Shown: positions 1 through 63,681, counted from the stretch's first letter. The stretch: 64,000 nucleotides of DNA from Candidatus Latescibacterota bacterium (GCA_963707635.1 OY970173.1:2496001-2560000), one strand, 5' to 3'. Numbers and translations: made by a program. The notes: a model not told the origin generated them from the sequence alone.

Positions 1-1
1 G

Positions 2-232
2 AATCAGCTCGTCGCGTGACACCTCGCGCCCGCGCTCGGCCAGCCGGGCCCGCACCGCGTCGATGTGCTTGAGCACGGCGGGTGTGAGCCGCACTACCAC
101 CTCGACTTCCTTGGCGTCGGGTGAGAGCGGCGAGCGGCCGCGAATCAGCTTCGACACCGTGTCGGAGGCGGCTGCCTCCTTCGCGTCCTCGAACGGGTCG
201 CGCCCCATCGATCGCTTGCGTCGTTCAGGCAC
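2..232 (-). CDS. Small ParA partner, probable ribbon-helix-helix protein (3' end runs off the window)
   Basis: Not in the ORF track. Manual translation from GTG at 232: MPERRKRSMGRDPFEDAKEAAASDTVSKLIRGRSPLSPDAKEVEVVVRLTPAVLKHIDAVRARLAERGREVSRDELI... It overlaps the parA stop and has GGAGG at 245-249. The strand-helix-helix pattern (VVVRL..L..ID...VSRDELI) is RHH-like. Confidence 0.65.
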   Translation of the reverse strand, partial: MPERRKRSMGRDPFEDAKEAAASDTVSKLIRGRSPLSPDAKEVEVVVRLTPAVLKHIDAVRARLAERGREVSRDELI

Positions 233-962
233 GGGACAACACTTCCTCCGTCAACTGGTAGTAGTCGAACGCCCCGCGCGACATGGGCGAATACTCGAAA
301 ATGGTCTGGTTAAAGCTCGGTGCCTCGCGCAGCGACGTATTCACCCGGATCACGGTCTTGAAGACGAGATCCTTGAACCGGTCGCGGAGCGTGTCCAGCA
401 CGTCGATCGACAGTCGGGTGCGCCCGTCGTAGAACGTGGGCAGGATGCCGAGGATCGAGGTCTGGCGCGTCGAATTGTCGTTGATCTCGTCGATGATCTG
501 CATGGTCTGGCGCGCGCCCGCCTGCGCCAGGTAGTCCATGCTCACCGGGATGATCACCTGGTCGGCGTACACGATCGCGTTGATATTGATGAGATTCACC
601 GTCGGCGAGCAGTCGCAGATCACGACGTCGCATCCGCGCAGGTTGCGAAGCGCCATGTCGAGACGCCGCTCGCGGCTGGTGCGCGACGCCAGCACCATCT
701 CGATCTCGGCCAGGTCGCGCCCGCCGGAATCGATGACGAACAGGTTCTGCCGGGCCTCGATCACGTCGACCTCGCCGTACTGGAGCAGGTCGCACAGCGT
801 GCGCTGCCCCTTCAGGTCGAACGCGATGGCCACGTTGCGCTGTGGGTCGCAGTCGACCACCAGCACCTTCATGCCGCACAGGGCCAGCCCATGGGCGAGG
901 TTGATGGCGGTGGTCGTCTTCCCGGTTCCGCCCTTGGACGTGATGATGGCGATCTTCCTCAT
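225..962 (-). CDS. parA: ParA/Soj-family ATPase (orphan, no adjacent parB)
   Basis: MRKIAIITSKGGTGKTTT deviant Walker A, VDCDPQ, ICDCSP, ILPTFYDGRT and LREAPS. ATGA overlap with the upstream gene. Confidence 0.92.
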   Translation of the reverse strand: MRKIAIITSKGGTGKTTTAINLAHGLALCGMKVLVVDCDPQRNVAIAFDLKGQRTLCDLLQYGEVDVIEARQNLFVIDSGGRDLAEIEMVLASRTSRERRLDMALRNLRGCDVVICDCSPTVNLININAIVYADQVIIPVSMDYLAQAGARQTMQIIDEINDNSTRQTSILGILPTFYDGRTRLSIDVLDTLRDRFKDLVFKTVIRVNTSLREAPSFNQTIFEYSPMSRGAFDYYQLTEEVLSRA

Positions 963-3900
963 GCCGCGTCGTCGTCCTCGTCGCCGTCGTCGGCTTGCTC
1001 CTGCTCTGAACCGCCGCGATCGCGCAGCTGCTTGCCGTACTTCTCCCACCCGAGCGCGCGGAGCTTGTGGTCGCGGTCCACGTTTCGGTCTGTCACGGCC
1101 GAGTCGATGTCGAGATCGCCGGGCGTCGCCTCGTCGCCGCCGGCGTCGGCGAACTTGCCGCGGCCGAAGACCGGGGGCTCGTGGGGGGCCTCCGGCGGCG
1201 GACTCCCGTCGCGTGGCGTGCGGATGCTCGGGGCGCTATCCGCCGGTTTCCGGGTCGGCCGGACGGCCGGCGCGTCGGCTGGCCGGCCCGGCAGGGTCGC
1301 CGCACCCGGTCGCTCGCCCAGCACGTCGTCCAGCCCGTCCGCGTGCGTCTCGGGAGCTGCCGGGGCCACCGGCCTGGGCGGCCTGGGCGGCGGGCTGGCG
1401 GCAGGTTCCCCGGGACGCTGCTCGCGCACCGCCGCCACCGCCTCCGCGCGGGTGGCGAAGGCCGAAATGAAGGTCCGAAATTCGAGGCACGCGAACACGT
1501 CGGCCAGGTCGGTCCCCATGCCCGCCAGCGCCACCGCGCCGGTGGCCTCGAACGCGCGCGCGAACTGCCCCCACCCGCTGCTCGAGATGTACTCGACGCG
1601 CGTCAGGTCGAACACGATCGCGCGCGGAGCGCGCGCGAGCTCGCGCGAAAGCTCGTCGGACAAGAGCGACACCGCGGTGGTCTCCACCACGCCCGCGAGC
1701 GTGGCCACGCGCACTCCCTCGTCGCCGTCGCTCCATTCGAGGTCCATCCCCGGCGTGCTCGCGAACGAACGCCCGCGGGCCGTCTCCTCGGCGGCGGCCG
1801 CCGCCGGGGGCTCGTCCGCGATGGGCGCCGCCACGCGCCGGAAATCGTCGATCGCGTCGGCGAACATGTCGAAGGACGCGAGCACGATGTTGAACCCGAG
1901 CATGGTGAACACGTAGTACACGTCGGGGTCCATGCCGAAGAGTTTGATGTCCCCGCCCGCGCGGCGCACCTCGCGCAGGCGCTCGGTGAACACGCCCCAG
2001 CCGCCGCTCGACACGTACTCCACGAACGTCATGTCGACGACGACCCGGTTGCGCCCGCCCGCGAGCACCTGGTCCAGCGCGGCCCGGAGCCGCTCGGCGC
2101 TCACCGTGTCGATGATGCCCTTGAGCTGGAGCACCGCGATCTCTCCGCGTTCGCCGACGGTGGTGGCTTCGATGCGCAGGCTCTGCCATTCCATCGACGC
2201 CCCCGCCGGGGTCCCGCCCGTGTCGATGCCGTGCGACGACGCCATCGTATCGGCGCCCAGGTCGCGCCGGACCGGAGGCGCGCTGACGCGCCGTTGCTCG
2301 GGCGGGAGTGCCAGGTACGCGCGCGCTTCCGCGAGGCCGGGAAACGCACGCAGCACGTCGGCGAACCCGAGCAGCTCGTACACGTCGAACACCTCGGTGG
2401 TCATCCCGCACAGCACGATGTCGCCGCCGTGGTCGCGGAGCCCGCGCACTTCGCCGACGAACAGCCCCCACCCGCCGCTCGACACGTAGGATGTCTCGCC
2501 GAGGTCGACGACGATGCGCAGTGCGCCGGCCACGATCAGGTCATGCAGCTTGCGCTCGAGCGCGGACGAAGACGACGAATCCAGGTGCCCGGCCAGCCGC
2601 ATCTCTGTGATGCCGTCGGACGACGAAACCGCGATGCCCACGCCCTCGACCCGCTCGGTGATCTCGGCCGGGAGCGGCGCGCCGTCCGGCGCGGACGCGG
2701 GGATCGCCGGGGGCGCGACCCCCGGGATCTCGCGCAGGAGGTCGTCGACCAGGTCGCGGCGCGGCGCGGGTATCGGCTCCGCGCCCGGCACCTCGGGCGC
2801 CTCACGCCGCAGGCGGTTGCGGCGCAGGTAGTCGAGGCGGAGGTCTTTGGTATTCAAATTGAGCCGCTTGAGCTCCTCGTACACCATGCGCTCGGAAATG
2901 TGCTGCGACGGGTCACGGTCGCGGTTGTACTCCTCGGTGATGCGCTTGGCACCGAAATCGGGGTTGGCGGCGATGGTGCGGATGATCGCCTTGCGCGCCT
3001 CCAGGCTCACGCGCTTCAAGCTGACGTCGTCGCGCAGGATGTCGTTGCGCAGGCCCCGCTCGCCCATGGTTTCCAGCCGCTTCTTGTACCGGTAGAAGGT
3101 CGCCGGGGAGACCCGCATCTGCTGGCAGGCATCCTTCACACTCATGCCCTGCAACTCGACCATGTCGATCAGCTTCTTGCGAATGTCGAAGAGCACGTCG
3201 TCCGCCGTCATCTTCTCCTTCACCGCCACGACGGTGATGTCGTCGCTCTGCGGGTAATCCAGCGTGAAGCGCTTGATGTCCAGATCCAGCTTGGCGATGA
3301 ATTCCTCGGGCGAGAGGTAGCCGTGGGTCTTCACCATGTCCAGCAGGCGCTCTTCGCCGTACTGCTCGCGGCGCTCGTTCATGGCCTCGGTCACGCCGTC
3401 GGTGTAGATGACGAGCATGTCGTCCTTCTTGAGGCGGACCTTCTCGACGCTGATCGAGCGGCGGAACAGCGATTCGTCCGGCAGGCTGATGCCCACCGGG
3501 AAGCCGCGCGGGTTCAGGAAGAACGTCTCCCGGGTCTCGTGGCGGTAGAGAATCATCGGGTTGTGGCCCGCGCTCGCGTAGCTGATCACGCGGTTCTTGG
3601 AATCCAGAATGACGTAGAACATCGTGACGAACATGCCCTTCTTCATGTCGTCGGTCACGAAGGCGTTCATCTTCGACATCACGTCGCTGGCGTTGCGGTT
3701 GCCGCGGGCCTCCATGCGCAGCGCGGTCCGGATCATGGTCATGACCAGCGAACCCGGCACGCCCTTGCCGGACACGTCGGCGACCACCACCCCGATGGTG
3801 TCGTCGTCGACCTGCACGAAGTCGTAGTAGTCCCCGCCCACCTCGGCCGCGGCCTGGTAGAGCGGCGCGATGTCGTAGCCGCTGATCTGCGGGCGGCGCC

Positions 3901-5215
3901 GCGGGAGCAACGACTGCTGGATCTGCTTCGCGACCTCGATCTCCTTCTGCATCTTCTCCTGCTCGAGAATCGACGTCTGCGCCTTGCGGAACTTCTCGGT
4001 GATCTCGTTGAACACACCGGCGATGGCGCCGATTTCGGCCGGACCCCGGATGTCGAGCTTGCCCTCCAGGTTGCCGTCGCCGATCGCGCGCACGCCGTCG
4101 GTGAGCACCTGGATCGGCCGCACGAAGACCTGCACCAGCCCGATGACGAGCACGAGGCCGACTGCGAAAGTCGCCAGCAGGAGCAGCGACGTCTGCAGCC
4201 GCGTGTCCCGGATGGCGGCGCTCACGGCGTCCTCGTACACGCCGAGGTGGAGCCGCCCGATTTCGAACGAGCGTCCAGCCTCCCCCTCCACCGTCACCGC
4301 CACCGCGACGTCGCGGACGTCCTGATCGCCCTGGCGGTGGCGCGACCACGAGATCGCGCCGTCTTCGAGCAGCAGCTTGCCGGCCGGGGCCTGGTAGGGC
4401 TGGAACACTTCGTCGATCTGTCCGGACGCGCGAATATTGCCGGTCGCGTCAACCAGCCGCACGTAGGCCACCTCGTTCGAGCGCGCGACGAGCTTCGAAA
4501 GCTCCGCGGTCAAGTTCGTCTGCTCGATCGAGAACTCGCTCGGGTCGGTCAGCACGGGGAGGCTTCGACTCCCGAGGCTCTCCGCCAGCCGCCGTTTCTC
4601 GACCCACTGGTTCGCGCGCTGGGCCCCGATGTCGCGCGTCTGCCGGAGGAACACGAATCCCCACAGCACCGCCATCAGCAGGAACAGGCCCCCGCTGGCG
4701 CGCACCATGAACTTGAAGCGGAGCGTGCCGCGCAGCGGCATCTTCTCGGGGAGCACCGCGGCCGAGAACGCCGCCTGGCTGCGCTTGGTCAGGATGAGCT
4801 CGTTGCCCGCGTCGGTGGTGCGGTACTCGACCCCGTCCATCAGGCGGTTGATGAGGAATACGCCGAGCCCGCCCTTGCGCCCGGTCTCGACGTACTGGTC
4901 GAGGTCGGGGTCCTTGACGCTCGAGAAGTCGAAGTTCCGGCCCCGGTCCTTCAGGTGGATGCGCACGCGGCCGGAATCGATCTCGGCCACAACGGTGATA
5001 TCGCCGCCGGCCGTCTCGTACGCGTGCTTGATGATGTTGGTGCAGGCCTCGTCGACGGCGAGCTTGGTGTTCGAGACCTCGCGCGGGCTGAAGCCCGCGT
5101 CCTCGCACACCTCCACCACGAAGTCGCGAACCCGCCCCAGCTGCCCTTCCTCCGCCGCGACCGTGAGGTCGCGGACGTTGGGCTTCCGCTCCAGCATCGC
5201 CGCCGCGCGCGCCAT
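959..5215 (-). CDS. Membrane-anchored all-in-one partner-switching protein: RsbW-like HATPase - TM - extracytoplasmic domain - TM - HAMP - SpoIIE/RsbU PP2C - HTH - 3x STAS
   Basis: Kinase motifs LAVDEACTNIIKHAY, DRG and GGLGVFLI. Two hydrophobic TM segments. HAMP (RPIQVL...EIGAIAGVFNEI). PP2C motifs VGGDYYD, ADVSGKG, SAGH, YTDG and DDIT. HTH SVKDACQQMRVSPATFYRYKKR. Three STAS repeats with Y(V/I)SS(G/S)GWG. Start may be 5197. Confidence 0.9.
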   Translation of the reverse strand: MARAAAMLERKPNVRDLTVAAEEGQLGRVRDFVVEVCEDAGFSPREVSNTKLAVDEACTNIIKHAYETAGGDITVVAEIDSGRVRIHLKDRGRNFDFSSVKDPDLDQYVETGRKGGLGVFLINRLMDGVEYRTTDAGNELILTKRSQAAFSAAVLPEKMPLRGTLRFKFMVRASGGLFLLMAVLWGFVFLRQTRDIGAQRANQWVEKRRLAESLGSRSLPVLTDPSEFSIEQTNLTAELSKLVARSNEVAYVRLVDATGNIRASGQIDEVFQPYQAPAGKLLLEDGAISWSRHRQGDQDVRDVAVAVTVEGEAGRSFEIGRLHLGVYEDAVSAAIRDTRLQTSLLLLATFAVGLVLVIGLVQVFVRPIQVLTDGVRAIGDGNLEGKLDIRGPAEIGAIAGVFNEITEKFRKAQTSILEQEKMQKEIEVAKQIQQSLLPRRRPQISGYDIAPLYQAAAEVGGDYYDFVQVDDDTIGVVVADVSGKGVPGSLVMTMIRTALRMEARGNRNASDVMSKMNAFVTDDMKKGMFVTMFYVILDSKNRVISYASAGHNPMILYRHETRETFFLNPRGFPVGISLPDESLFRRSISVEKVRLKKDDMLVIYTDGVTEAMNERREQYGEERLLDMVKTHGYLSPEEFIAKLDLDIKRFTLDYPQSDDITVVAVKEKMTADDVLFDIRKKLIDMVELQGMSVKDACQQMRVSPATFYRYKKRLETMGERGLRNDILRDDVSLKRVSLEARKAIIRTIAANPDFGAKRITEEYNRDRDPSQHISERMVYEELKRLNLNTKDLRLDYLRRNRLRREAPEVPGAEPIPAPRRDLVDDLLREIPGVAPPAIPASAPDGAPLPAEITERVEGVGIAVSSSDGITEMRLAGHLDSSSSSALERKLHDLIVAGALRIVVDLGETSYVSSGGWGLFVGEVRGLRDHGGDIVLCGMTTEVFDVYELLGFADVLRAFPGLAEARAYLALPPEQRRVSAPPVRRDLGADTMASSHGIDTGGTPAGASMEWQSLRIEATTVGERGEIAVLQLKGIIDTVSAERLRAALDQVLAGGRNRVVVDMTFVEYVSSGGWGVFTERLREVRRAGGDIKLFGMDPDVYYVFTMLGFNIVLASFDMFADAIDDFRRVAAPIADEPPAAAAAEETARGRSFASTPGMDLEWSDGDEGVRVATLAGVVETTAVSLLSDELSRELARAPRAIVFDLTRVEYISSSGWGQFARAFEATGAVALAGMGTDLADVFACLEFRTFISAFATRAEAVAAVREQRPGEPAASPPPRPPRPVAPAAPETHADGLDDVLGERPGAATLPGRPADAPAVRPTRKPADSAPSIRTPRDGSPPPEAPHEPPVFGRGKFADAGGDEATPGDLDIDSAVTDRNVDRDHKLRALGWEKYGKQLRDRGGSEQEQADDGDEDDDAA

Positions 5216-5217
5216 GG

Positions 5218-7101
5218 CTAGCGCTGCCCCTCGACCTTGCGCACGCGCTCGCGCGCCTCCTCGATGGACCGCTGGACGCTTTCGTTGGTGGGATCGATCT
5301 CGAGGATCTTCTCCCATTCCGCGATCGCCTGCGCGTACTGGTCCCTGGAGAAGAACTGCATGCCGGCCAGGTAGAGCTCGCGCACCCGCGACTTCTCGGC
5401 GTCGGTGAGCGGCGTGGTGCGCCGCTTGGTCAACGCCATGAGTTTCTTGGCGTCGGCGTGGTCGGGCTGCAGAGTCAGGAGCTCGCGCAGGTCGGTCATG
5501 GCGCCCTGGTAGTTGCCAGCGTTGTACTTGGTGAGCGCGTCGTTATACAGCGTGACGATGCGGAGCTTGCGCTGCGAGGCCGCGTAGTCCTGGCTAACCG
5601 ACTCGATCTGCTTGCGGATGCGCGCGATCGACGTGCGGGCATTCGCGTTGTCCGGTTCGTATTGCTGCACGTTGTTCCACTCCGCGATCGCCTCGGTCAG
5701 GCGGCCGTCGCGTTCTAGCTGCTGCGCGCGTTCGGAGTGCGCACGGATCCGCTCGTTGATCTTCGCATTGGTTTGATCCAGGTAGTCGTGGGCGCCCACG
5801 TTGAGCGAATCGATCGCGAGGATCGCGTGCCACTCGGTGCGCGCGCCGATCATGTCGCCCTCGTTGAACAGGTCGAGCCCGCGGGCGAAGCGCGTGCGAA
5901 TCACGGCCTGGTTCCCCAGGTCCCGCACCGCCGCCGCCTGCTGGGCCAGCACCTGCTCGCGCGCCGCGTCGCGGGCCGCGGCCGCCTCCGCGTCGTCGGG
6001 CACGAATTCGAGGACGATCAGCCACTGGTTGAGGGCTCCGGCCCAGTCGTCGCTCGCCTCGAGCGCGCGCGCCTTCTCGCGGTGGGCGTTGATTCGCGTC
6101 TCGAAGGTGCGCTGGATGAGCAGCCGCTCGTCCTCGGCGCGCTGCGCCTCGATCGCCTCGCGCTTCTCGTCGAGGGTCTGGCCGAAGCGGCCGGTGAAGG
6201 TCACGGCCTGGTTCGAACCGCTCTCGTCACGCGAGTAGAATGCATAATCCACGCCGTAGTTGAACGCCCCCACGCCGAGCCCGAACGTGGGCGTGTCGTC
6301 GTCGAATCCGACCCGCAGCGCGACCAGCCGCGAGAACACGTACTCGGCGCCGGCGTGGAAGCGCCCGTCGGCACGCTCCGGGAGATCGTACTGCAGCATG
6401 AGCCGGAGCGCGGACCCGTTGTCGAACCTGCGCGTGTACCCGGCGCCGGCCAGGATGGTTCGATCAACCGTGTCGTCCTCGAGGTCGAGCTTGTACTGGG
6501 CGCCCACGATGTCCTGCAGGTTCACTCCCAGGGAAAGCGATCGCGCCCCGTCGGGTATGTAGCGGAAGCCGATGTCGACGCCGGGCGCCGTGCTGCTGAA
6601 CGGATCCACCTGCTGGCGGCTGATCTTGAAGGTCGCCCCCGCGGCCAGATTCCCGAACATCCACCCGAAATGGCGCTCGGCCGCGTAGGAGATGAGGAAC
6701 TGGCTCTCGCTGGCGTTACCTTCGCCGAGCGGGCGGCTGAACTCGTCGTACAGATCAAAGGTGGTGCCGACGTTCATGTAGCCCACGCCGAATGCGCCCG
6801 CCGAGAGGGTCGGGTAGACGAAGCCGAAGTAGGTATAGCCCGCCCCGGTGAACTCCCCGTAGAGCGGCATGTACATCGCCATGAACTGCATCGACTGCAC
6901 GTTGCGCAACGACGCCGGGTTCCAGTACACCGAGCTGGCGTCGTCGGCGAGGCTCACGAATGCCCCGCCGAGACCGATCCCACGCGACCCGGCGCCCAGC
7001 TTGAACGTGCTCGCGGTGCCGCCGTCCTGCGCGAAGGTGGGCGTCGTCAGCGCGACGAGCGCGGCGAGCAGCGCAACGATCACAACGCTCTGGTTTCTCA
7101 C
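5218..7101 (-). CDS. PorV/PorP-like outer-membrane barrel with C-terminal TPR repeats
   Basis: GTG start overlaps the giant-gene stop. Signal peptide (...TPTFA|Q). GAGSRGIGLGGAFVSLADDASSVYWNPA motif typical of PorV/FadL-like barrels. C-terminal helical repeats such as AIAEWEKILEIDPTN. Confidence 0.8.
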   Translation of the reverse strand: MRNQSVVIVALLAALVALTTPTFAQDGGTASTFKLGAGSRGIGLGGAFVSLADDASSVYWNPASLRNVQSMQFMAMYMPLYGEFTGAGYTYFGFVYPTLSAGAFGVGYMNVGTTFDLYDEFSRPLGEGNASESQFLISYAAERHFGWMFGNLAAGATFKISRQQVDPFSSTAPGVDIGFRYIPDGARSLSLGVNLQDIVGAQYKLDLEDDTVDRTILAGAGYTRRFDNGSALRLMLQYDLPERADGRFHAGAEYVFSRLVALRVGFDDDTPTFGLGVGAFNYGVDYAFYSRDESGSNQAVTFTGRFGQTLDEKREAIEAQRAEDERLLIQRTFETRINAHREKARALEASDDWAGALNQWLIVLEFVPDDAEAAAARDAAREQVLAQQAAAVRDLGNQAVIRTRFARGLDLFNEGDMIGARTEWHAILAIDSLNVGAHDYLDQTNAKINERIRAHSERAQQLERDGRLTEAIAEWNNVQQYEPDNANARTSIARIRKQIESVSQDYAASQRKLRIVTLYNDALTKYNAGNYQGAMTDLRELLTLQPDHADAKKLMALTKRRTTPLTDAEKSRVRELYLAGMQFFSRDQYAQAIAEWEKILEIDPTNESVQRSIEEARERVRKVEGQR

Positions 7102-10100
7102 TTCGCCACCGCGATTCGGAACTTGGCCGACTTCGAGCCCGCGTTCAGCACGCACACGTAGACGCCGTTGCGCACGACTTCGCCCTGACCGTTGCGGCCG
7201 TCCCAGGTCGTCTCCTGCGGCCCGGCCTGGGCGCGCGCGTCGCCCGAGGGAATCGTCTCTTCGTACACCAGGTCCCCGGTCAGCGCATAGATCTTGAGCG
7301 AGACGTCCGCCGGAGCGTCGAGGAAGTACGCGATTCGCGTCGCCTGCGATCCGGCGCGGAACGGATTCGGATAATTGTGCGTGTACTCCTGGAAGTTCCC
7401 GCTCAACACCACCAGCGATTGCGAGGTGACCTGCCCGTCGAGCGGCTGTCCCTGCGCATCGGTCACCCCGAGCGGGAGCGTCGAGGCCGGGTCTCGAACC
7501 ACCAGGCCACCCGATCGCACTCCCACACGAATCTCCGTCTCGCGCGGCTGCGCGTCCAGATCCAGCGCCACCACCGCGTTGACCGACGCGTTGGGCGCGA
7601 TCGTGCGATCCGCGCCCCCACCCAGGAGCGAGACCACGATCGGGTTGGTGGCGGGACTGGTGACCACGTAGGGCTGCGCACCGCCGAGGTCGATCTGGAG
7701 CCGCGCGAGCGTCGCCCCCACCGAAGCGGCCGAGAGCGGCTGGCCGTTCTTGCCGATCACGGTGATCGCAATGGTGTCGATCTGGGCATCGTTCACGCTG
7801 GGGTCGCTCGCGTTGTACGCGATCTCGACGCCCAGGAGGGTCACGTCGGCCGCGCCCGCGGGCACCACGCCGGTATTGATCCCGAGACTCTGCGACACGT
7901 TGCGCACCGCCACCGCGGCGCCTTCGGTCACCATGGCGATATTCGCGGTCCCGTTCGCCACCTGGGCGGGAAGACCGCTGTTTTCGTCGGCGGGGACGGC
8001 GGAGATCGTCACCGCGATCTGGTCGGGCCCGGACGGCTGCAGCGCGGCGTTGACATCCCACGCCACCGGTGTGCCCACCACGAACGGCTTCGCGACGGTT
8101 TCTCCACCCGCGAGCGTGTACCCGGGCGGGAGGCCGATCGAGAGCTGCCCGCCGGCCGCCACGCCCGCCGCGCCGGCTGCATTGGTCACGTTCGCCGTGA
8201 CCGTGAACGGAACCCCCACGCCGACCGCGTTGTCCGTGGCCTCCGGTGGCGCGGTCACACTCGCCGCCACCGAGAGCGAGGCGCGCGGCACCGTCGTGAC
8301 GGCGACCGTGTCCGCGACGGAAGGCACCGGGTTCTGCGAGTTCTCGTCGATACCCGCGAAGGTCACGACCGCGTCCGCCGCGCTCGCCGGCAGGCCGGGC
8401 GCAATCACGCTATACGTCACCGACAACACGCCGCCAGTTCCGTCGCCAAGGTCCCGCACCGGCCCCCCACTCGTCACGATATACCCCGCGGGCAGTGCCA
8501 GCGTGGCGGTAACGTTGTCCGTCGTCGAGGTCGCGGTCACTGCCGCCCGCAACGAGAAGGTCTGGCCCACGCTCACCGTGTCGTCCACCGCACCCGCCGG
8601 ACTGGTCGCCGACAGGCTCGGAGCCGAGAGCGCGCCGCCCGTCGCCACCGTGATCGACACCTGGTCGTCCGGCTGCGACGAGAATGCCGGCGCCGCCAGA
8701 TTGACGTCGTCAGGCGTGGTCGTGAGCGTGCATGTGAAAGCGACGGCCGCCTGCGGCGCCGCCGGCGCGGTCACCGTCCAGTCGATCGCAACGCCCGCGC
8801 TAAACGCCTGCACGGGCGATTCCAGCACCGAGAACCCGGACGGGCTCGTCAGCTTCACGTCAGCCGCACCGGCGAGGCTCGCCTGACCCGCGTTCGTCAC
8901 CAGGCCCGTCACCGTGAAGGTCTGATTCGGGCTCACCACCCCGCCTACGGCGGAGCTGGTCAGCGACAACACCAGGTCGGCGCGTCGCTGCGTCACCACC
9001 AGGTAGGTGTTGTCGACCGGGGGCTGCGGAATCACCGGCTGCCCGGAGTTGTGCGACACCACCCCGGATAGGATCGAGGAAGTGAACGTCTCGAGCGCCG
9101 CGGGCGCCGCCGGTGCGGTCACGCGGAACACGAAGGTGTGGCTCTCGTCCACGGCGATCGACTGGCGGCGCAGGCTCGCGGGCGCGACGCTCGACGCGCC
9201 GTCCTTGGCCAGCGACACCCGCACACTGTCCACGTCCTCGCCGCTGTTCTGGACGGTCACGTGGATCTCGTACGCGAAGCCGGTATTGACCGTGTCGCGA
9301 TTGGCGGTCGCGTGGTTGAAGGTCCCGAAGCCGGTAGTCGCGAGAATCGCGAGGCCGGCGACCTCCTGCACGCGCACGGTGGTGGCCCCGGCGTCGGAGA
9401 GTGCGATCGTCGGGTCGTTGCGGTCGTTGCCGCGCGCCCCCAGTGCGATGTCGACCAGCCCGGTGTCGCTCCCGGTCACGATCACGCTGTATACGAGCGA
9501 GTCCACCGCGCCTCCCGGCAGGCGCCAGGCCGGCGCGCCCGAGCCGAACGCCGTCGGCGGCTGAACCACGTAGTCGATCTTCGTGGCTCCCGCGATGGAG
9601 AAGGCGACGTCGGCCGCGACCGGCGGCGTCAGGTCCGCGCTCGCCTGTCCCGTATTCCGGAGCGCCACGACGATGTTCCACGGGTTCGACTGTCCCTGGG
9701 TCACGGACGCCTGCGACGGCCGCACGCTGGTGATGTCGAGCACCGCCGGCGACTGGATCGCGACGGGTGCAGTCGCATCGAGGGGAGGATTGTTCAGCGC
9801 CACGAGGTTGCTCTGCGCCGAGTTCTCGTCAACGGCGGATACGAGCGTGGTCGTGAAGGTCTCCAGCGTCGACGACGTCGCCGACGCCGTCACCGGCCAG
9901 GCGTACGCCACGGTCTGCCCGGCGGCGACCTCCGCGATCGGAGACACCGGCTGTATCGTGCTGAGCCCATCCGTCGCCATGCCGACCACGACGTCGCGCG
10001 CGTCCGCCTGACCGGTGTTCTGCACCTGCAGGATCACGTCGAAGGCCTGGCTTTCGTTCACGGCGACCGGATTCGGGGCCGCGACGGTCGTGGTGGTGAT

Positions 10101-13100
10101 GCGCAGCTGCGCCAGCGTCTCCACCACGATCTGACCGTAACCCGTCGACGCAACCGTCGTCGCCGAGCCCGCCGTCTGCGAATTCGCCTCGATCCAGGGC
10201 ACGGTCGCGTCGATACGACGCGTGCCGGCCGTAGTCCCGGTGGTGTCGACTATAAAGAGCAGGCTGTCGACCGACCCGCCCTCGAGCACGGTACCTCCGC
10301 CCAGCAGCGCGGACGAGGCCACGAACGCCCATCCCGCCGGCGGGCCCGCAAAGGCGATCCCGGCGCTCGCCGCGGCGACATCGACGTCCGCGCCCCCGGT
10401 GTTCGCGAGCACGACCCGCACCGACCAGTCGGCTACCTGGCCCGCGGTCACGTCCGGTCGCGACGTGTGCGTCGCGACCACCGCCACCGCCGCCGGCGAC
10501 TGCACAACGACGCTCCCGCGCCCGCCGTCGAAGGTATTGTCGTTCACGATCGTGAGATGGTTCAGGTCGCGCCCTTCGACGCGCCCGCTGATCACGATGT
10601 TGCCGGTCCTCGTCCCGGTCTGGGTCACGAGAAACTCGATGGTGCCGGTCTCGAGGGAGTCCAGAATGTCGCTGGCGCCGCCTCTCATCACGGGCGGGCT
10701 GACCGTGTACGTGAGATCCGGCTGCGCGTCCGGCGCGATGAACGTGAGGAACGTCTCCGCCGGCGAAAGGTCGAGGTCGATGGGAGCGGCGCCGGTATTC
10801 ACGACCGTCATGGTCGCGGTCCAGTCCGCGGTCTGTCCGGCGGTGACGCTCGGCTGCGACACGACGATCTGCTGGATCGACAGCTGCGGCGGCACCTGAA
10901 CGGTGACACCGTTGGGCACGACTTCCGACTCGGTCATGTCGATCTCATTGGCGTTGTAGCCGAAGTCCACGTTGAAGGCGTAGGGGCCGAGCGGAATCCC
11001 CGATTCAACGACCTTGGGCTCGAACAGGAGTCTGACCGTCTCGCCGCCGCGAATCGAATCGGGGCTGCCGAGAGCCAGGAACGCGCTGAATTGGTTGGCC
11101 GCAAAATGGACGCGCGTCAGGCCGTGGTCGAGCACCGCCGTTGCCGCGTTGGGGTTCGCGTTCGCCACGTCGACCTCGAAGGGGACGACCGAGCCGCTCG
11201 TGACCCCGGACGGGTCTATGTCGACGACGGTCAGGTTCGGCGACGCCTGCACACGGATCGAGCCCGCGCCCGGCGACGACAGCACGCGGGTGCTGTTCGT
11301 CTCCACTGCCGACACGGAAATGTTGAGCGCCTTCACGCCGTAACTCGAAAACGTCCCGGTGTTGTTGGCGTGCGCGATCAATGTGCCCGAGCTGCCCCCC
11401 GCGAGAATGAGTCCACCCTCCTCCAGATCCGTCGGCTTTACGAACACCGTGGGGCCGCCATCGTCCTGGATGCCGATCGTGAACCCGGCTGGCAGCGTGA
11501 GGCGCGCGTCCGATTGTCCGGAGTTGTGCACCGCGACGGTCACGTCCCAACCGAACGCCGTGCCCGCGGTCACGGTGCTCTGCGACGGCGTGACCGAGTC
11601 GACGACGATGTCCGCCGGGGTCTGGAGCGTGATCGAGCCCGTCCCGCCGCTGCCCGTGTCGTCGATGACGATGGTCCCGGTATTGATCTCGCTGCCGGTC
11701 ACGGTCCCGCCGATGGTCGCCACGCCGGCGCCGCCCCCCGTCGTCGTGACCAGGAAGCGCAGCGTGTCGGTCTCTCCGCCGGTGAGCGTCGCGCCCGACG
11801 GCATGGTGGCGGGGTTGACCGCCCAGCCCGTCGTGCCCGGGAACGTGAGGAACGAGTTCGCCTGAAGCAGCGACACACCGACCGCCGCACCGCCGGTGTT
11901 GCGCACCGCCATCTTCACCGCGTACGACTTCGCCGTCTGTCCCACCGTCGCCGTGGTCTGCGCGGTGGTGATGCTCTCGATGCTCAGCGCACCCGGAAGC
12001 TGGAGGGCAAAGCTGCCGGTGCCGCCATCGCTGGTGTCGTCGGTGAGAATGTCGCTCGAATTGAGATCGGTGCCGCGCACGAACCCGTTGACGATGATCG
12101 TCCCGACGGTATTCCCGGCCCCCTGCATACTAAAGACGAGCGAGTCGATGGCGCCGCCGTTGAGTATGGTGTTGCCCGCGTCCTCGAGTGCGGTCGGCGA
12201 CACGATCGTGTACTCCGAAGTGACGGGGGCGCCCGTGCCCAGCACGTTCAGCCCGAGTTTCGTCACCGCCGGGTCGAGGTCGAGGTCGACCGCCGCCCCA
12301 CCCGTGTTCTGCACCACCATCGTCACCGTCCAGGGCACGGCCTGCCCCTGCGTCACCGTCGCGCGGCTCGATCGCACGCCCACGATACTCAAGCTGGGCG
12401 CGTTCTCAACCGTGATCGCGCCCCCAATCGGGATGGTGCGCGTGCCGGTGACGCCGTTTTGCGTCCAGTGCAACTCGAGCACCGCGTCGGCCTGACCTCC
12501 CGTCAGAATCCCAGCCCCCACCACGGCGCCCGTGAAGAGCAGCGTAACCTGCGCGTCGGCGGCCACGTCCACCGGGCTCGTCTGGGTCAGCCCCACGTTG
12601 AACTGGTTCGAACCGAAGCGCAGGCGCGACGTCGTGCGGTCGAGGGTCAGCGTCGCCCCGCTGGGCGTCACCGGGTTGCTCACGGTCACCGCGAAGGCGA
12701 CGGACGTCCCCTTCGACACGCTCCCCGGCGCCAGCGACACGTAGGCGGCATCCGGCGCCTGCTGGACGGTCACGCTGCCCGTGTCGAAATCGTTTCGCGC
12801 CACCCCCGAGTTGAGCTCGGTGCCGTCGACGTCGATAGTGATTGTTTTCGACCCGAACGAGCTGTATGCGCCCGCGGTGGTGAGCGGGATCAGGAGCTGA
12901 TCGGTTTCGCCCCCGGAGAGCAGCGTGCCGCCACCGACGAGCGAGGCCGGCACAATGTACGCGGGCGGGGTAGTCGCATTCTGGAAGACGACGCTGACCG
13001 CCGCCCCGAGATCCAGGTCGACATCCGACTGGCCGGTGTTGGTGAGTGTCGCGACGACCGCCCACGGCACACTGGTCCCGCTCGTGATCGTCGTCCGCGA

Positions 13101-16100
13101 CGGCGTGATACCCGACACGGCGATCAAGCCCTGCGACTGCACGAGCACGCTTCCCAGCCCCGAAGACGAGACGGACAGCGCGCGCGCACTGTTGCTCTCC
13201 ACACCCGCGGTGGCCACGTCGACCATGGTCGGCCCGGTCACGCTGCCCGACTGCGTCACGTCGAACACCATCGTGTCCACTTCGCCTCCGGAGAGCACCG
13301 TCCCGCCGCCCACGAGCGCGGGCCGCACAGTGGATACCCAGCCGGCCGCCGGCGAGAACACGAGCCGCGACGTGGGTCCGGCGAGCGTGAGCACGACGTC
13401 GCTCCCGCCGGTGTTACGCACCGCGGCGCGCACCTGGAACGTCTTGCTCATCCCCTGCGTCACCTTCGGCTGCGACGGAATCACGGCGTTGAACGTGACC
13501 GCCGCCGGAGACTGGACCAGCAGGTTGCCCTTGCCGCCGAGGTTGGTGTCGGCGAACAGCGGCTGGCTGGTGTTGACGTCCTCGACCTCGAGCGCGCCCT
13601 CGATGGTCATGTTCCCGACCGTGGTCGCGTTGCCGGTGTTGTCCGAGACGTTGAACACCACCGTGTCGACGTCGCTGCCGGTGAGCAGCGTCCCTCCGGA
13701 AAAGGCCGCCGGGGTGGAGACCACGAATTGATTGGTACGGTCGACGCCGGCGTGGATGAAGCGCAGCGTCGCGGCCGTGAAGGTGACGTTCGCCCCGCCG
13801 TTGTTGGCCACCACCATGCGCACCTTGATGGGCTTGCCCTGGTCCTGGGTGAACAGCGGCTGCGACGGGATCATGGAGAGGATGGCGATGTTCGGCGCGT
13901 CCTGGACCAGCACGTTGTCCGCGACTGTGATCAGCTGGCCGAAGGGGAGGCCGTTTTCGAAGCCATTCAACTGGACCTGCGGGACATATGACGCGCTCGC
14001 GATGGATCCGCTGACGGACGTGCCCAGGAATTGCAGCGTGGTGGTACCGGGCGGCAGCGACGTCGGACCCGACGGGTTGAGCGCCGCGGTGAAGGCGCCG
14101 GCGGCGAACCGGATCGTGGTCGTCGCCGGGGAGAGGTTCACGGTGGCAAGGCCGGTGTTCACGAGCTGGACGGTGAACGCGACCGTCGCGGTCTTGCTCA
14201 CCTGGTCCGGGTCCAGCGCGTCGCCGGCCGCCGACGCCACACTCGCCGGCGTCACGACCGACACCGGGCTGCCGGTGAGCAATACGGGCGGCCAGGTGGA
14301 TGGCGCGCCGTTCTCGGTGCCGTGGGCGTCGAGCGTCACCGGATACGAACCGGGCGTGAACGTCCCCGGCACCGCCCGCGGCCGGAACGTCATGGTCTGC
14401 ATCGCGTTCCCGCCGGCGATCGCGTAGTTCTGCGTGGGCGACGCGCTGAACGTGCGCACGCCATCGGTGAAGGTAAGGCGCGTCGTCGTGGAATCCAGGA
14501 ACGCGAGCCCGCCGCCGGTGTTCCGTATCGTCGCCTGGAATGCGTAGATCTTGCCGCGAGAGGCGACCACCGGCGTCAACGTGGACGGCTCATAGGCCAG
14601 GATGGCCGCGGCCACGACTTCAACGGTCGCGCGCGGGTAAGGCGCCACCGCCAGGTCGACCACGGACTGTCCCCCCACGGTGCCGGTCGCAGCAGCATCG
14701 ATGCTGTAGAAACCCAGCGTCGCTCCGGTCTGTACGGTCACCGGGACGTTGAACACGCCGGATGCGCCCGGGCCGAGCGCGAGCCCCAGCTCGGGAGCAT
14801 TGCCGACGATGAACAGACCGGCGGGAATGAAGGTCAAGTCGATGTCGTTGATGGTCGTGCTCTGGGCCCCGTCGTTCTTGACCGTGACGGCGATGCTCGT
14901 CCCATAGCCCCGGCTCACCTGCCCCGACGCCGGCACGATGCCAGTGATTTCGATGTTGGTGACGAGCAGCGAGAGCGCGGGGAGGCTGCAGGCCACGTTG
15001 ACGGGCGCGGTATTCGCGTCCGCGCCGATGAGCGTCGCCGTCGGCGCGTACTGGGCGGTCAGGAAGGCCGGGTCGATGGCGGCCGACGCGAAGGCGAGGA
15101 TCGCGTTGCCGCTGCCCGGCACCAGCTGCTGCGCGGCCAGATTGGCCGAGTAGCTGTGGGTCCCGTCCGTGAACGAAAACGTGGTCGCGGTCGTCAGGTT
15201 GACCGACGTCGGCGACGAGTTATTGACCACCACGCTGAACGCGACCGAACTCCCCGGCACCACGATGGCCGGTGTGGGCGGGGTGTTGCACACCAGCACG
15301 GGCGGCGGCGCGAACGTGATATCGATGGTCCCGCTCGCCGTCCCGGTGGCGCTGGTCATCGTCACCGTCGACACGCCCACCGTGGTGGACGAACGCAGGT
15401 CGAACGTGATGGTGCCATTCGCCGCGATCGTCTTCGGGCTTCCACCCACGATGAAGCCGCCGAGGTTGGCCGACACGTTCACCGACAGCCCCGCCGTTAC
15501 CTGGTTGGCAAACGCGTCTCGAATGACGCCGCTGGTGATGGTCGTGGTCGAGGTGCCGTTGGCCGTGATCGTGGTGCGGGTCGCGGTCGCCGTGATTGCC
15601 CCGGCGGGTGCGGCGGGAACGACCGTCACCGCTTCACCCAGCCCCGTCACCGAGGGGTTGCCGACGGTGGCGGCGCGCACCTGGTAGGTCTGCACCTGGG
15701 TCGCGGTGACGGTCGTGACCGCGACGCCGTTGGACAGAGTCAGCGGGTTGGTGCCGAACACCAGACCGACGCCGGGATCCCCGGAGAGTGCGACCTGCGT
15801 CGCGTCGTCGTCGACGGGGTTGTTGTTGATGTCGTATGCCGTGATGGTGGCGTTCTTCGAAACCCCCGCCGTCGTCGACGACGCATTCATGACGACGGTG
15901 TAGTAGGCGATTCCGCCCGCGACCGTGGTGACGTTGAAGGTCACGCGCTCGCGTGCGGCCGGGGTGCCGTCCAGAATCGTCGCGGCCACCGTGCTAGGCC
16001 CCGCGGTGGTGGACGTGTGCAGACGCGCGACCGCGCGGCCGTTGGCCGCCGACGCGGCGATACCATCCGTCGAGTCGCCCACCGAATCGCGCAGGAACCC

Positions 16101-19100
16101 GCTCGGCGCCGGCGACGACTGGACGAGATACCTCACCGCCTGGCCCGCGACCGGGTTGCCCCACTGGTCGCGCACTTCCGTGCGCAGCGGTTGAGTCACC
16201 CCCACCGGTATCGACGGTGGGCTCGATCCGGCCACGTAGACCACGCGATACGCGGGGCCGTTGGTGACGGTCACTGTCGGGCTGATCCCGGTGGGACCGC
16301 CGCCCTGCGTCTGCGCCCCGACGGTGAACGTCTCCGCGACGGTGTCGCGCACGGTGGTCACGAACTGACCGGCGGCGAGCGTGCCCGAGACCGCGCCCAG
16401 GGTGGCATTCCCGGTGTGCAACACGTCGATAACGGTCGAGTTGTCCTGTGTCCGGTAGTTGTTGTTGGCGTCGCGCGCCTTGATGGTCACCGAGGTCACC
16501 TGGTTGGCGACGAGCGCCGTCGACCCGGTCGTTATCTCGTAGCTCGCGATCGGACCCGCGACCGTACTCACCGTGAAGTTCACCGTCTCCAGGGCCGGCG
16601 GCGCCCCGTCGAGAATGGTCGCGCGCACCAGGTTGGTCCCCGATCACGGTCCCGGTGGTCAGCGTCGTCGACACGTCTCCGGCCGCGTTGGTCGTCCCCG
16701 ACGGCGGTGCCGGCGACCCGCCGCCCTGGGTGACCGCGAACGACACCAGCTGGCCGACGACCGGATTGCCGAACGGATCGAGCACGCGCGCCGTCAAGAG
16801 CCGCGTCGCCCCCGCCACGATCCCGCTCCCATCGCCCGCCACGTTGGTCACGCGGTAGGCGGCGGCGGGTTTGATCTTTACAATGTTGGAGTAGCCTTCG
16901 AAGCTGCCGGCGTCCCGCGCCCGCACGCGCATCAGCTCGGCCACGGTGTACGATTCGTTGACCACCACCGCGCCCGCCACCAGCGTCGCCTGCGTGACCG
17001 ACAGCGGATTCCCGGTGGGGGTCGTCGTGACGTCGTCGACCGCGGTGAGCGTCACCGAGTTGCCCGCCGACGTCACCTTGTTGTTGAAGGCGTCGCGCGC
17101 CTCGATCGAGACGTTGAACGCCGCGCCCGCGATCGCGCTGTCGGCGGCGATCACCGCATAGCTCGCCACCACGCCGGTGTGGGTGACGGTCACGACTCGC
17201 TAGGTCGCCGGTGAGCCCCGCGGCTGCCGCCGCGATATCCCAGCCCCCAGCCGTCGGTCCGCGGCCGTAGACCGTCCGCGAGCCGCCGATCAGGTTGAAC
17301 GTGGTCGTGCCGACGCCGAAGTCGGTGAGGCTGAAGACCAGCGAGCTGCCCGCCTCCGGCGTCAGCGTCACCAGGCTGGTGTTGCCCGTGTCGAGGTTGT
17401 CGCTGCCGTCCAGCGCCTCCACCTTGAACGAAAACGGACTGCCCCGCCGGCGCCGTGCTGGCCGACAGGAACGTGATCTTCAGGTGGGTCGCGCCGCTCG
17501 AGACGGTGTTCACCGCGAACGTCACGCGTTCGCGCGCGAGCGGCGAGCCGTCGAGAATCTGCGCGTTCACCTGGTTCGTCCCCGCGGTCAGCGCGGTGTG
17601 GTAGGTCACGAGCCCGCGCCCGGAGCCGTTGGTGACGACGATGCCGTCGTTGGGATCGCCGTCGGTGTCGGTGAACGACGGTGTGCCGTCCGGCGCCGAC
17701 GCCACGGAGAAGGTGGCGAGCGCGCCGGGGACCGGGTTGCCGTAGAGGTCGCGGACCTCCACCTCCAGCGGGCGCGTCGTCCCCGCGGTGACCCCGCTTC
17801 CGTCGCCGCTGATCTTCACCACGCGGTAGGTGCCCGCGTTGGAAACCGAGACGACCGCGCTGGTGCCGCTCGGCGGTCCCCCGCCCGACTTCTCGGCGGT
17901 GATGGTGAACGTCTGCACGACCGTGTCCCGCACGGTGGTGGCGAACACGCCGTTGGTCAGCACCCCGGTCGCGGCCCCGAACTGCGCGCTGCCGGTCGAC
18001 GAGAGCGTGACCGACGTCGTATTGTCCAGCGTGACGACGTTGTTGCCCGCGTCGTAGGCGGTGATCGTGAGCGGCACCGTCTCGCCCGCGAGCAGCGAGG
18101 TCTGCTGCGGCACCACCGTGAAGTAGGCGATGCCGCCGGCCACGGTCTGTCACGCTGAACTCGACCAGCTCGTCGCTGGGAGGAACGCCGTCGAGGATGG
18201 TCGCGCGCACGCGGTTGTCGCCGGCGACGAGACCGGTGGTGAGCGTGGTGGCGGCGGTCCCGCTCCCGTTGCGTGGCGATCGACGCCGGCAGCACCGACC
18301 CGCCACCCTGGAACGCGACGAATGACACCTGCTCCCCCGCGACCGGGTTGTCGTAGGCGTCGAGCACCTGCGCGGTGAGCACGCGGGTCGCGCCGGCCGC
18401 GACGCCGATGGCGTCGCCGGACACCTTGGCGATGCGCTTGGCGGCCGCGGCGGAAACCGTGACGATGCCGCTCGTCCCTTCCTTGCTCCCCGCGTCGCTG
18501 ACCTTGACGCGGATCGCTTCGGCCTTGGTGTACGACTCACCGACCGTCGCCTGACCGCCAGCCAGGGTCGCACCGGTAACGAGCAGCGTCGACTGGGCGG
18601 GCCCGGGATTGATGTCGTCGATCGCGGCCAGCGTGATCCCGTTCGACGCTCCCACCACCCGGTTGTTGTACTCGTCGCGCGCTTCGATCGAGACGTTGAA
18701 GGTCGCCCCGGCCACGACACTCGCGACGGTAGACACGGCGTAGTCGTCGACGAGGCCGGTGTCGGTGACGATCAAGGGTTCGGTATCCGCGCCCAGTCCG
18801 CCGCCGCTGGTGGTGACATCCCAGTTCCCCGCCAGCGTGCCGAGCGTGTAGACCGTGCGCGCGCCGGAGGCGAGTGTGACCTGGGTGACGGTCGCGCCGA
18901 AATCGGTGAGGCTGAATTGCAGCCCGCTGCCCGCTTCCGGGGTCAGCGTGACGATGGCCGCGTTGCCGGTGTCGACGTTGCCGGTGCCGTCGACGGCCTC
19001 GACCAGAAACTGTACGCTCTGCCCCGCGGGCCGGGTCGAGGGTCCGACGAAGGTGATGCGCAGATTGGTGGCGCCGCTCGCGGTGGTGGTGTAGGTCACG

Positions 19101-21740: not shown

Positions 21741-21756
21741 TGCAACTCCCATGCCC
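21741..21756 (-). promoter_or_regulatory. Candidate sigma-54 (-24/-12) promoter of the giant-adhesin operon
   Basis: Minus strand GGGCAT-GGGAG-TTGCA versus consensus TGGCAC-N5-TTGCA, about 70 nt upstream of the probable start. Confidence 0.45.
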
Positions 21757-21853
21757 CACCAGCGGTTCCCCATTTCGGGGCATGACTACCCCGGGCTGGA
21801 GTCGGACTCAATCGGCGGGAACTCCAGCACCGACGCGAGCCGGGATTCCCGGG

Positions 21854-21882
21854 ATGGTAGCAGCCGGAGGCGGAATAGGCAA
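21854..21882 (-). promoter_or_regulatory. Alternative sigma-70-type promoter for the giant-adhesin operon
   Basis: TTGCCT-17-TACCAT with a TG extended -10 on the minus strand. Confidence 0.4.
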
Positions 21883-62729: not shown

Positions 62730-63632
62730 CTACTGCTCCATGTAGCCCTGGAGGAACTTCGCGCGCGTGGAATGGCGAAGCCGCTGGATCGCCTTTTCCT
62801 TGATCTGGCGAATGCGCTCGCGCGTGAGCTTCAGGCGCTTGCCGATATCCTCGAGCGTCATGGGGGCGTCGCCGCCCAAGCCGAAGTAGAGCGACAGGAT
62901 CTGGCGCTCGCGCTCCGAGAGGGTGGCGAGCGCGCGTTCGAGATCGTCGCTCAGCGCGGCGGCGTAGGTGTCCTCGTCGGGCGCGGCCTGGGCCTCGTCG
63001 GTGAGGTAGTCGACCAGCGCCGTGTCGTCTTTCTCGCTCGAGTACGGGTCGTCCAGCGAGACGTGTGTGTTCGCGATGACCATCGTGTCGGCAACTTCCT
63101 TCGCCGAGATGTTGAGCCGCGCCGCGATCTCGTCGGCGCTCGGCGCCCGGCCGAGCTCCTGGTCGAGCTGGCGCGACACCTTGCCGATCCGGTACAGCGT
63201 GCCCGCCCGGTTCAGGGGCAGGCGCACGATCCGCGAGTGCTCGGCCAGCGCCTGCAGCATCGCCTGGCGGATCCACCACACGGCGTAGGAGATGAACTTG
63301 AAACCCCGTTCTTCGTCGAAGCGGTGCGCCGCCTTGATCAGGCCCAGGTTCCCCTCGTTGATGAGGTCCTCGAGCGAGAGGCCCTGGTTCGCGTACTGCT
63401 TCGCGATCGAGACCACGAAGCGGAGGTTGGCGCGCACGAGCCCGTCCAGCGCGTCCTTGTCGCCGCCGCGAATGCGAACCGCCAGGTCCCGCTCCTGCTC
63501 GCGGGTCAACAGCGCCGTGCGGTTGATCTCGTGGAGATAGAGGTCGAGGCTCCGGATGCCGGCTCCGGCCTCGGACTCCTTCGACGCCCGCTCGCGCGGT
63601 TCCAGACGATCTTCCATTTCTCGTTCTCGCAT
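62730..63632 (-). CDS. RNA polymerase sigma-70 factor, RpoD/SigA family lacking region 1.1
   Basis: YLHEI, ANLRFVVSIAKQY, DLINEGNLGL, GFKFISYAVWWIRQ and TRERIRQI. AGGAGG 8 nt before the ATG at 63632. Confidence 0.93.
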   Translation of the reverse strand: MREREMEDRLEPRERASKESEAGAGIRSLDLYLHEINRTALLTREQERDLAVRIRGGDKDALDGLVRANLRFVVSIAKQYANQGLSLEDLINEGNLGLIKAAHRFDEERGFKFISYAVWWIRQAMLQALAEHSRIVRLPLNRAGTLYRIGKVSRQLDQELGRAPSADEIAARLNISAKEVADTMVIANTHVSLDDPYSSEKDDTALVDYLTDEAQAAPDEDTYAAALSDDLERALATLSERERQILSLYFGLGGDAPMTLEDIGKRLKLTRERIRQIKEKAIQRLRHSTRAKFLQGYMEQ

Positions 63633-63681
63633 TACTTCATCCTCCTGGTTCTTACCCATCCACACTGCCCCAGGGGTTGAG

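Follow-up and report, generated by a model that had tools for sequence, protein, structure and literature searches.

A large membrane protein encoded in the window (the whole 64,000-nucleotide stretch of DNA analyzed here) carries, between its phosphatase and its STAS domains, a double helix-turn-helix (HTH) module that very probably derives from an IS481-type transposase. Sequence comparisons indicate that the module is ancient and not a recent IS insertion, and the fused gene occurs in nearly all sampled genomes of two phyla, KSB1 and Calditrichota. That the module binds DNA of some kind appears probable; that it constitutes the DNA-binding output of a sigma-less membrane kinase/phosphatase switch is a narrower proposal, given here somewhat less than an even chance.

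A membrane partner switch with an embedded double HTH

The switch gene (959..5215, with its ATG at 5215) is an open reading frame for 1,418 residues; like all other genes, domains, and motifs given window coordinates here, it lies on the minus strand. By Pfam, its domain order is an RsbW kinase, a transmembrane segment, a periplasmic domain with weak sCache-like character, a second transmembrane segment, HAMP, PP2C, the double HTH, three STAS domains, and a tail, with the two transmembrane stretches placed by hydropathy around residues 171 and 343. This architecture puts a periplasmic sensor-type domain, a membrane anchor, and a cytoplasmic predicted DNA-binding domain on one chain. The RsbW/SpoIIAB-type serine kinase domain (4784..5158, Pfam) retains an N-box (E56/N60) and the motifs D90-x-G92 and G115-G116-x-G118, none of which varies among 66 aligned proteins, and the acidic metal-site motifs of the PP2C/SpoIIE phosphatase (3218..3943), GGDYYD, VADVSG, YTDG, and DDIT, are likewise intact and invariant. 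The HAMP domain (3986..4129) follows the second membrane segment, and each of the three STAS domains (1430..2644) has a Y[VI]SSxGWG phospho-acceptor-type motif. With these motifs intact, a GHKL serine kinase, a PP2C phosphatase, and STAS domains bearing an acceptor serine are all predicted within the 1,418-residue protein.

The double HTH module (2816..3202, residues 672-800) lies in frame and directly behind PP2C. Its first unit, HTH1 (3035..3202, residues 672-727), begins right after the last PP2C strand and has the basic recognition helix VSPATFYRYKKR; the second, HTH2 with its terminal helix (2816..3010, residues 736-800), is followed by a proline-rich linker and then by STAS. A first-pass annotation of the window had placed a transposase-type double HTH between the phosphatase and the STAS repeats, and the excised segment indeed matches four Pfam models (HTH_28, HTH_29, HTH_23, and HTH_Tnp_1) above their cut-offs, with an HTH_32 match on the second unit below cut-off. 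The type had been given as IS481, IS630, or IS3, of which the first has held up and the others have not: the NCBIfam IS481 transposase model NF033577 is matched over positions 2-109 of its 284 at E 3.4e-15 (56 bits, where the cut-off is 224), nine orders better than the IS630, ISNCY, and IS3 models (E 1e-6, 2e-6, and 3e-6). Origins from IS630, IS3, or ISNCY were rejected on these profile scores, the tree described below holding IS481 members without those three families.

Neither Pfam nor NCBIfam matches an rve or DDE core anywhere in the protein, and the seven inverted pairs in 2600-3400 include no terminal inverted repeats round the module, the sole pair that spans it having both arms (2609-2625 and 3196-3212) within coding sequence. 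The earlier description of the segment as in frame, with neither a DDE domain nor inverted repeats, therefore agrees with the reading frame and with both scans. This module is the single match of the IS481 model in the genome, and it occupies the same position of the same gene across phyla. A sequence search of the PDB with the module gave one weak match, to the first HTH only, in a Listeria protein; the Atlas search gave HTH_28/29/32 clusters only.

Origin, conservation, and spread of the module

The module query also retrieved real HTH-HTH-rve transposases from related genomes. A tree was built from 105 segments (42 signaling, 31 IS481-like, and 32 from glycosyltransferase fusions) over 148 columns, with duplicates, fragments under about 105 residues, and a small number of poorly matching IS rows omitted. 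The signaling HTHs fall on one side of a branch with support 100/96, their next neighbors are 15 IS481 rows (86/82), and the glycosyltransferase-fusion HTHs form a separate branch (94/80). Because IS481 rows lie between these two fixed groups, the direction of change was probably from transposase to host, as far as an unrooted tree with no outgroup can indicate. The P, G, and L residues of HTH2 and its terminal Arg are common to all sequence sets, with P752, G755, L782, L787, and R793 invariant in the signaling, GT2, and STAS sets.

The glycosyltransferase fusions represent a second fixed family, in which two IS481-type double HTHs stand ahead of a GT2 glycosyltransferase in proteins of up to 2,949 residues. 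They were seen in 16 of 42 scanned proteins (P0210, P0215, P0227, P0237, P0241, P0258, P0260, and others); the clusters with taxon names are three from Patescibacteria and one from Aminicenantes.

In orthologs of the switch, the module is 129 residues long without indels in all 30 loci returned. Its median dN/dS (0.16 for HTH1 and 0.23 for HTH2, versus 0.15 for PP2C and 0.19-0.24 for STAS) was obtained with a Nei-Gojobori script from 16 genus-level loci, the 120 pairs of which are not independent, and its GC3 is 0.91, with 0.89-0.96 in the rest of the gene. Among the 120 matches listed, 98 are full-length homologs (at least 1,300 residues); their mean identity to the 1,418-residue protein is 73% in HTH1, 63% in HTH2, 70% in the kinase, 85% in PP2C, and 22% in the linker that follows the module, and within them the recognition helix S-P-x-T-Y-Y-R-Y-K-K-R is nearly invariant. 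Conservation across phyla is 44% for HTH2 versus 35% for HTH1. The segment is matched in 44 of 61 genomes, its own included.

These data bear directly on whether the module might be a recent or functionless in-frame IS remnant. Such a remnant would fit with the loss of the module from most Zixibacteria copies, but the indel-free loci, a dN/dS of about 0.2, the host-like GC3, and the occurrence of the module across phyla as a single clade all argue against it, so that ortholog presence, purifying selection, and the single clade refute this explanation and leave it next to no probability. The segment is thus neither absent nor degenerate in its orthologs. The suggestion that it is a domesticated transposase HTH is sustained by the IS481 profile match, the rve-bearing relatives, the one clade, purifying selection, and presence in several phyla.

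A profile built from 26 full-length proteins found the switch gene in 59 of 61 genomes from the phylum to which the KSB1 records belong, 30/31 of Calditrichota, 41/41 of Zixibacteria, 9/31 of Eisenbacteria, and 42/91 of the window's own phylum, two families of which (35 and 9 genomes) have none; scattered copies occur in records labelled FCPU426 and Spirochaetes. The phyla are named after the titles of the records at the center loci, and the names of homologs assign the organism to Candidatus Krumholzibacteria. Wherever the profile matched a KSB1, Calditrichota, or Eisenbacteria genome, the match runs over the HTH positions, as it does in 41 of the 42 matched genomes of the window's own phylum. 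In Zixibacteria the HTH is kept in 10 of 41 copies, and 17 of the other 31 were fetched, all of them without it; with most copies in that group devoid of the module, it is evidently dispensable in some lineages. An HTH stands directly behind a switch-type PP2C in 84 of the best 150 of 299 representative matches. The C-terminus past the HTH varies, with three STAS domains here and TPRs or short tails elsewhere. Paralogs of the switch in the KSB1 phylum (L164-L168; 1,262-1,993 residues) end in TPRs and retain HTH2 without HTH1, in five of the five fetched.

Candidate outputs of the switch

In the preferred reading, the two-HTH front end of an IS481-type transposase was fixed long ago behind the PP2C of a membrane switch, where it would bind chromosomal DNA as the direct output of the switch, replacing a sequestered sigma factor. 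A periplasmic signal would pass through HAMP to the balance of kinase and phosphatase, and this balance would set how far the STAS domains, three fused and two free, are phosphorylated. The STAS state, or movement of the PP2C domain that is predicted to carry the HTHs, would then uncover the dimer's HTH pairs or shift their position on target promoters, for which the membrane-anchored one-component regulators ToxR and CadC offer a model; envelope genes would be likely targets, the upstream giant-protein/PorV operon being one example. Where KSB1, Calditrichota, Zixibacteria, and Eisenbacteria have a soluble STAS-HTH2 protein, that protein would take part in the output or provide it itself, as does CapS (see below). 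This reading is favored because the module is IS481-derived without DDE, is under selection, has a basic HTH1 helix, and has bipartite DNA-binding domains as its structural neighbors. Weighing against it are the neutral linker, the acidic HTH2 helix, the failure to detect an operator, the absence of the module from about three-quarters of Zixibacteria copies, and the retention of HTH2 alone in all five KSB1 paralogs.

The chemistry of the two units is uneven. The recognition helix of HTH1 has a net charge of +3.1 (n=83) versus +2.8 in IS481 (n=31), whereas the linker between the HTHs has +0.1 versus +3.9, and the recognition helix of the kinase HTH2 has +0.2 versus +1.4, two conserved acidic residues (E/D-E) having been gained; where helix 3 begins, the signaling HTHs mostly have P or T in place of the arginine of the IS481 "S-R." An AlphaFold model of the module, from a 20-row alignment, has two three-helix units with one extra helix behind each (mean pLDDT 92). 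The pTM of 0.83 for a model of PP2C plus HTH, versus 0.58 for the HTHs alone, gives a weak hint that PP2C and the HTH units may pack in a fixed arrangement. Foldseek with the HTH model returned nothing at E 0.001 or better, and the best VIA-align score (Z 6.3) is below that tool's noise level. The structural neighbors over both units are the DNA-binding regions of TnsB, Pax, Tc3, Mu, and IstA, all with weak scores, so the fold matches back only the description "tandem HTH." With the PP2C+HTH model, Foldseek returned PP2C-type phosphatases only, among the matches listed.

A different use of the same surfaces would be protein docking, in which the HTHs have been co-opted and DNA binding lost, with RNA polymerase, a sigma-54 activator, the switch's own kinase (mimicking a sigma factor), or a shared partner as candidate ligands. 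This is considered unlikely, even if the acidic pair in the HTH2 recognition helix and the neutral linker would suit it, as would the fact that HTH2, the better conserved unit across phyla, is the one kept everywhere, in STAS fusions and KSB1 paralogs alike. HTH1, however, retains its basic recognition helix. Switches of the SypE/SypA type act, according to the accessible text of their description, through an unidentified protein output (PMC10120452), which also fits docking.

Further evidence comes from a second copy of the motif. Downstream STAS proteins of KSB1, Calditrichota, Zixibacteria, and Eisenbacteria have a copy of HTH2 at the C-terminal end; this STAS-HTH2 is an IS481-type HTH, not a winged one, and was found in 41 of 65 related loci. 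Both HTH copies are present in 27 of these loci, the kinase copy alone in 21, the STAS copy alone in 14, and neither in 3 (of 68 loci, 3 were dropped for short flanks; duplicates and one fragment were skipped). STAS-HTH2 is strongly basic (net charge +7.3) and exposes conserved tryptophans, the latter again in keeping with docking. No STAS-HTH2 was found in the genome studied here, in which the kinase copy is the sole one; docking of the kinase HTH to a STAS-HTH was therefore rejected for this genome. As the kinase HTH and STAS-HTH2 each survive alone, a shared third ligand is favored over mutual docking. A tree of HTH2 alone (65 columns, 96 rows) groups kinase and STAS copies at 48% support only, so that duplication within the operon is a possibility.

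In nine Zixibacteria loci (L178-L186), a run of 9-10 A occurs at the same spot in the STAS-HTH2 linker (in L184 at 5843-5852). Three of the nine are in frame; the other six are not, and each would need an identical -1 shift, with a similar peptide beyond the run. The run in L184 is spanned without gaps by a DNA contig, possibly its source, and by an RNA-library contig of another study. Slippage or frameshifting that would give STAS with and without HTH is likely, with assembly error possible outside L184.

The closest described parallel to a STAS-HTH output is the CapK-CapS system (Chambers et al., EMBO J 2026, PMC13373217), in which, according to the accessible part of that report, an anti-sigma-type kinase and a STAS-HTH protein regulate transcription directly, CapS being a STAS-winged HTH repressor released by phosphorylation. 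Both systems pair an anti-sigma-type kinase with a STAS substrate and have HTHs, on both partners in CapK-CapS and in the relatives with STAS-HTH2; operation without a sigma factor and control of DNA binding by STAS phosphorylation, described for CapK-CapS, are for the present switch proposals only. From the same portion of the source, CapK is soluble, activated by DNA damage, without PP2C, and beside immune operons, whereas the present switch has a membrane sensor and both kinase and phosphatase and neighbors PorV-TPR and the giant protein. CapS joins its STAS to a MarR/ArsR-like winged HTH, whereas the present HTH is IS481-type and bipartite and the STAS domains in this genome have no HTH. 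The role of the kinase's own HTH is left unexplained in the text available, and its deletion from CapK had no effect (PMC13373217), which also counts against a DNA output here.

The operon usually runs from the giant protein through PorV-TPR and the switch, sometimes with ParA, to STAS. Upstream of the switch here lie a PorV/PorQ-family barrel fused to TPRs (5218..7101) and a giant secreted-type protein (7098..21668), which is broken into several frame-shifted ORFs in this assembly; the frame of this gene is open over 4,311-5,918 residues in five relatives, and the pieces are probably assembly errors. The C-terminal domain of the giant protein is, by resemblance, presumably of the sorting type. 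On the other side, a ParA/Soj-family ATPase (225..962) overlaps the stop codon of the switch and is followed by the start of a 90-residue protein (1..232, continuing beyond the window) that looks ribbon-helix-helix-like by eye, without a Pfam match. Next in the genome come a TPR gene and then two free STAS genes without HTH. That this TPR gene is a split-off C-terminus of the KSB1 kinases was not supported (23% identity, over TPRs only).

The switch itself has a C-terminal WEKYGKQL motif (1025..1048). A C-terminal motif of this [WF]xxYxxxL type occurs in 16 of 16 loci where ParA lies next to the gene and in 0 of 49 where it does not, in a comparison in which the pattern was written after inspecting the tails and the loci are kin and not independent. 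An adjacent ParA is found at 16 of 48 HTH loci versus 0 of 17 HTH-less loci. Because ParA tracks the C-terminal motif and not the HTH, the tail, a candidate ParA-binding peptide, would be the likelier ParA partner. Nucleoid tethering had also been put forward as an output of this module; through the neighboring ParA, such tethering is not tied to the HTH.

A related explanation, improbable though not far-fetched, is that non-sequence-specific DNA binding tethers the switch to the nucleoid and, with ParA on the tail, positions the switch and perhaps the site of giant-protein secretion. Adjacency of ParA exclusively to HTH-bearing genes and the perfect association with the tail motif count in its favor, and the lack of a detected operator in the promoter region and the departure of base-contact positions from IS481 while basic residues are kept point the same way. 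Yet ParA is not adjacent at 32 of the 48 HTH loci; in Zixibacteria, HTH, tail, and ParA lie side by side, so that a single deletion could take all three, in loci that are kin; and an HTH1 recognition helix that hardly varies within the order is more in line with a specific target.

Such a target was sought in the 21.7-22.0 kb promoter region. Two promoter motifs stand in tandem ahead of the giant-protein operon (21741-21882, minus strand): a sigma-54-type -24/-12 motif, GGCA-N6-TTGC (21741..21757), in 20 of 20 upstream regions, and a sigma-70-type motif with an extended -10 (21854..21882) in 17 of 20. The sigma-54 pattern has two matches in the window versus 1.0 expected by chance, its support being its conservation in all 20 regions; RpoN is encoded in the genome, and the motif implies an activator in trans. 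An 8-mer search over the upstream regions of 20 genomes, at this one promoter region, detected no operator; most of what it gave was the sigma-54 motif and words from coding sequence. Located 16 bp ahead of the -35 box, a TAA-N4-TTGT tract is IHF-site-like in 6 of 17 regions at two or fewer mismatches, the comparison being to the generally known IHF consensus.

The switch operon contains no sigma-70-family gene, the nearest being at the far end of the window, in accord with the original remark that it encodes no alternative sigma factor. In the genome, which is 96% complete, none of six matches to the SigB/F/G-type model TIGR02980 is above cut-off; in a control, the model scored above cut-off in 1 of 14 genomes. 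There are 18 sigma-70-family matches, including three group-2-like and many ECF sigmas. Two very similar group-2-like paralogs lie at 62730-63665 (minus strand) in the window and at G000:C1:857073-858029. At a separate locus (L132, G000:C1:17715-19066), an RsbW-like protein, a STAS protein, and an ECF sigma form a trio, suggestive of a partner switch with an ECF sigma as its target. Given the 18 sigma-70-family matches, one of them an ECF gene next to a separate RsbW/STAS pair, the membrane switch may act in trans on a sigma factor of the ECF or group-2 type.

Such a target enters into a further alternative, in which DNA is the input: the HTHs would detect nucleic acid, or contact with the nucleoid, and adjust the adjoining phosphatase, and a sigma factor or activator encoded elsewhere would be the output. 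The direct junction of PP2C to HTH1, the pTM of their joint model, and the activator in trans implied by the sigma-54 motif are compatible with this distinctly unlikely reading. CapK, with the order HTH-STAS-kinase, is turned on by single-stranded DNA, but the position predicted for its DNA site lies between STAS and kinase and not at the HTH, in the part of the report available (PMC13373217). A DNA input would also not account for the basic HTH2 that free STAS proteins bear in other phyla, and a periplasmic sensor-type domain is already part of the protein.

Relation to known systems and significance

ToxR/CadC-like regulators, a class defined by a periplasmic sensor, a membrane anchor, a cytoplasmic DNA-binding domain, and a specific operator, have, like the switch, sensor, anchor, and DNA-binding domain on one chain, although their OmpR-type winged helix is of a different HTH class. 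The Pax paired domain and other domesticated bipartite DNA-binding domains, which are of transposase origin, likewise consist of two HTHs and a linker kept without a catalytic core; the Pax-type domains are eukaryotic and Tc1/mariner-type, however, and the structural matches are weak (Foldseek ranks 1, 3, and 9; E 0.1 or worse). The kinase, PP2C, and STAS of the canonical RsbU/RsbV/RsbW-SigB and SpoIIE/AA/AB-SigF switches are also present here, whereas a cognate SigB/F/G-type sigma was not found.

With the N-terminus of IS481 transposases (NF033577), HTH-like according to the accessible text of PMC10045372, the module shares two tandem HTHs and a terminal L-N-T-x-x-x-R helix. It differs from an IS481 element in having no DDE core or terminal repeats, in being single-copy and inherited with its operon under purifying selection, and in its less basic linker and HTH2 helix. 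Mycobacterium tuberculosis Rv1364c (PMC9138534; PDB 3ke6) also has kinase, PP2C, and STAS on one chain but, as far as the available text describes it, is soluble, has the order PAS-PP2C-kinase-STAS, regulates SigF, and has no HTH. In the Vibrio fischeri SypE-SypA pair, a non-canonical system for which the portion of PMC10120452 at hand shows no sequestered sigma, SypE has an N-terminal kinase with PP2C behind it on one chain, with a receiver domain in place of a membrane sensor and, in the same text, no HTH on either partner.

No account of this switch family was found in the literature covered, outside which lie most subscription papers and supplements, nor in the literature searched was there a clear case of a transposase DNA-binding domain as a fixed part of a bacterial signaling protein. 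The present tests add the independence of the two HTH copies, the link between ParA and the tail, the promoter motifs, the A-run, and a second capture in glycosyltransferases. Sigma-less partner switches usually have outputs that are not known, and this family offers a concrete candidate in a 130-residue assayable domain, with natural variants that have or do not have the HTH, ParA, or STAS-HTH as ready controls. In KSB1 and Calditrichota, moreover, regulation is little described, and the family is near-universal in both as sampled. A broader picture can be offered tentatively, as a possibility somewhat more doubtful than the DNA output itself: an ancient near-core system of KSB1, Calditrichota, Zixibacteria, Krumholzibacteria, and Eisenbacteria, in which a partner switch would have swapped its sigma output for HTHs captured from IS481, as a double HTH at the membrane and a soluble STAS HTH (dosed by A-run slippage in one clade), with ParA positioning through the tail, and with the glycosyltransferases of Patescibacteria having captured the module independently. 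If true, the independent glycosyltransferase capture would make the IS481 module a reusable regulatory part in bacteria.
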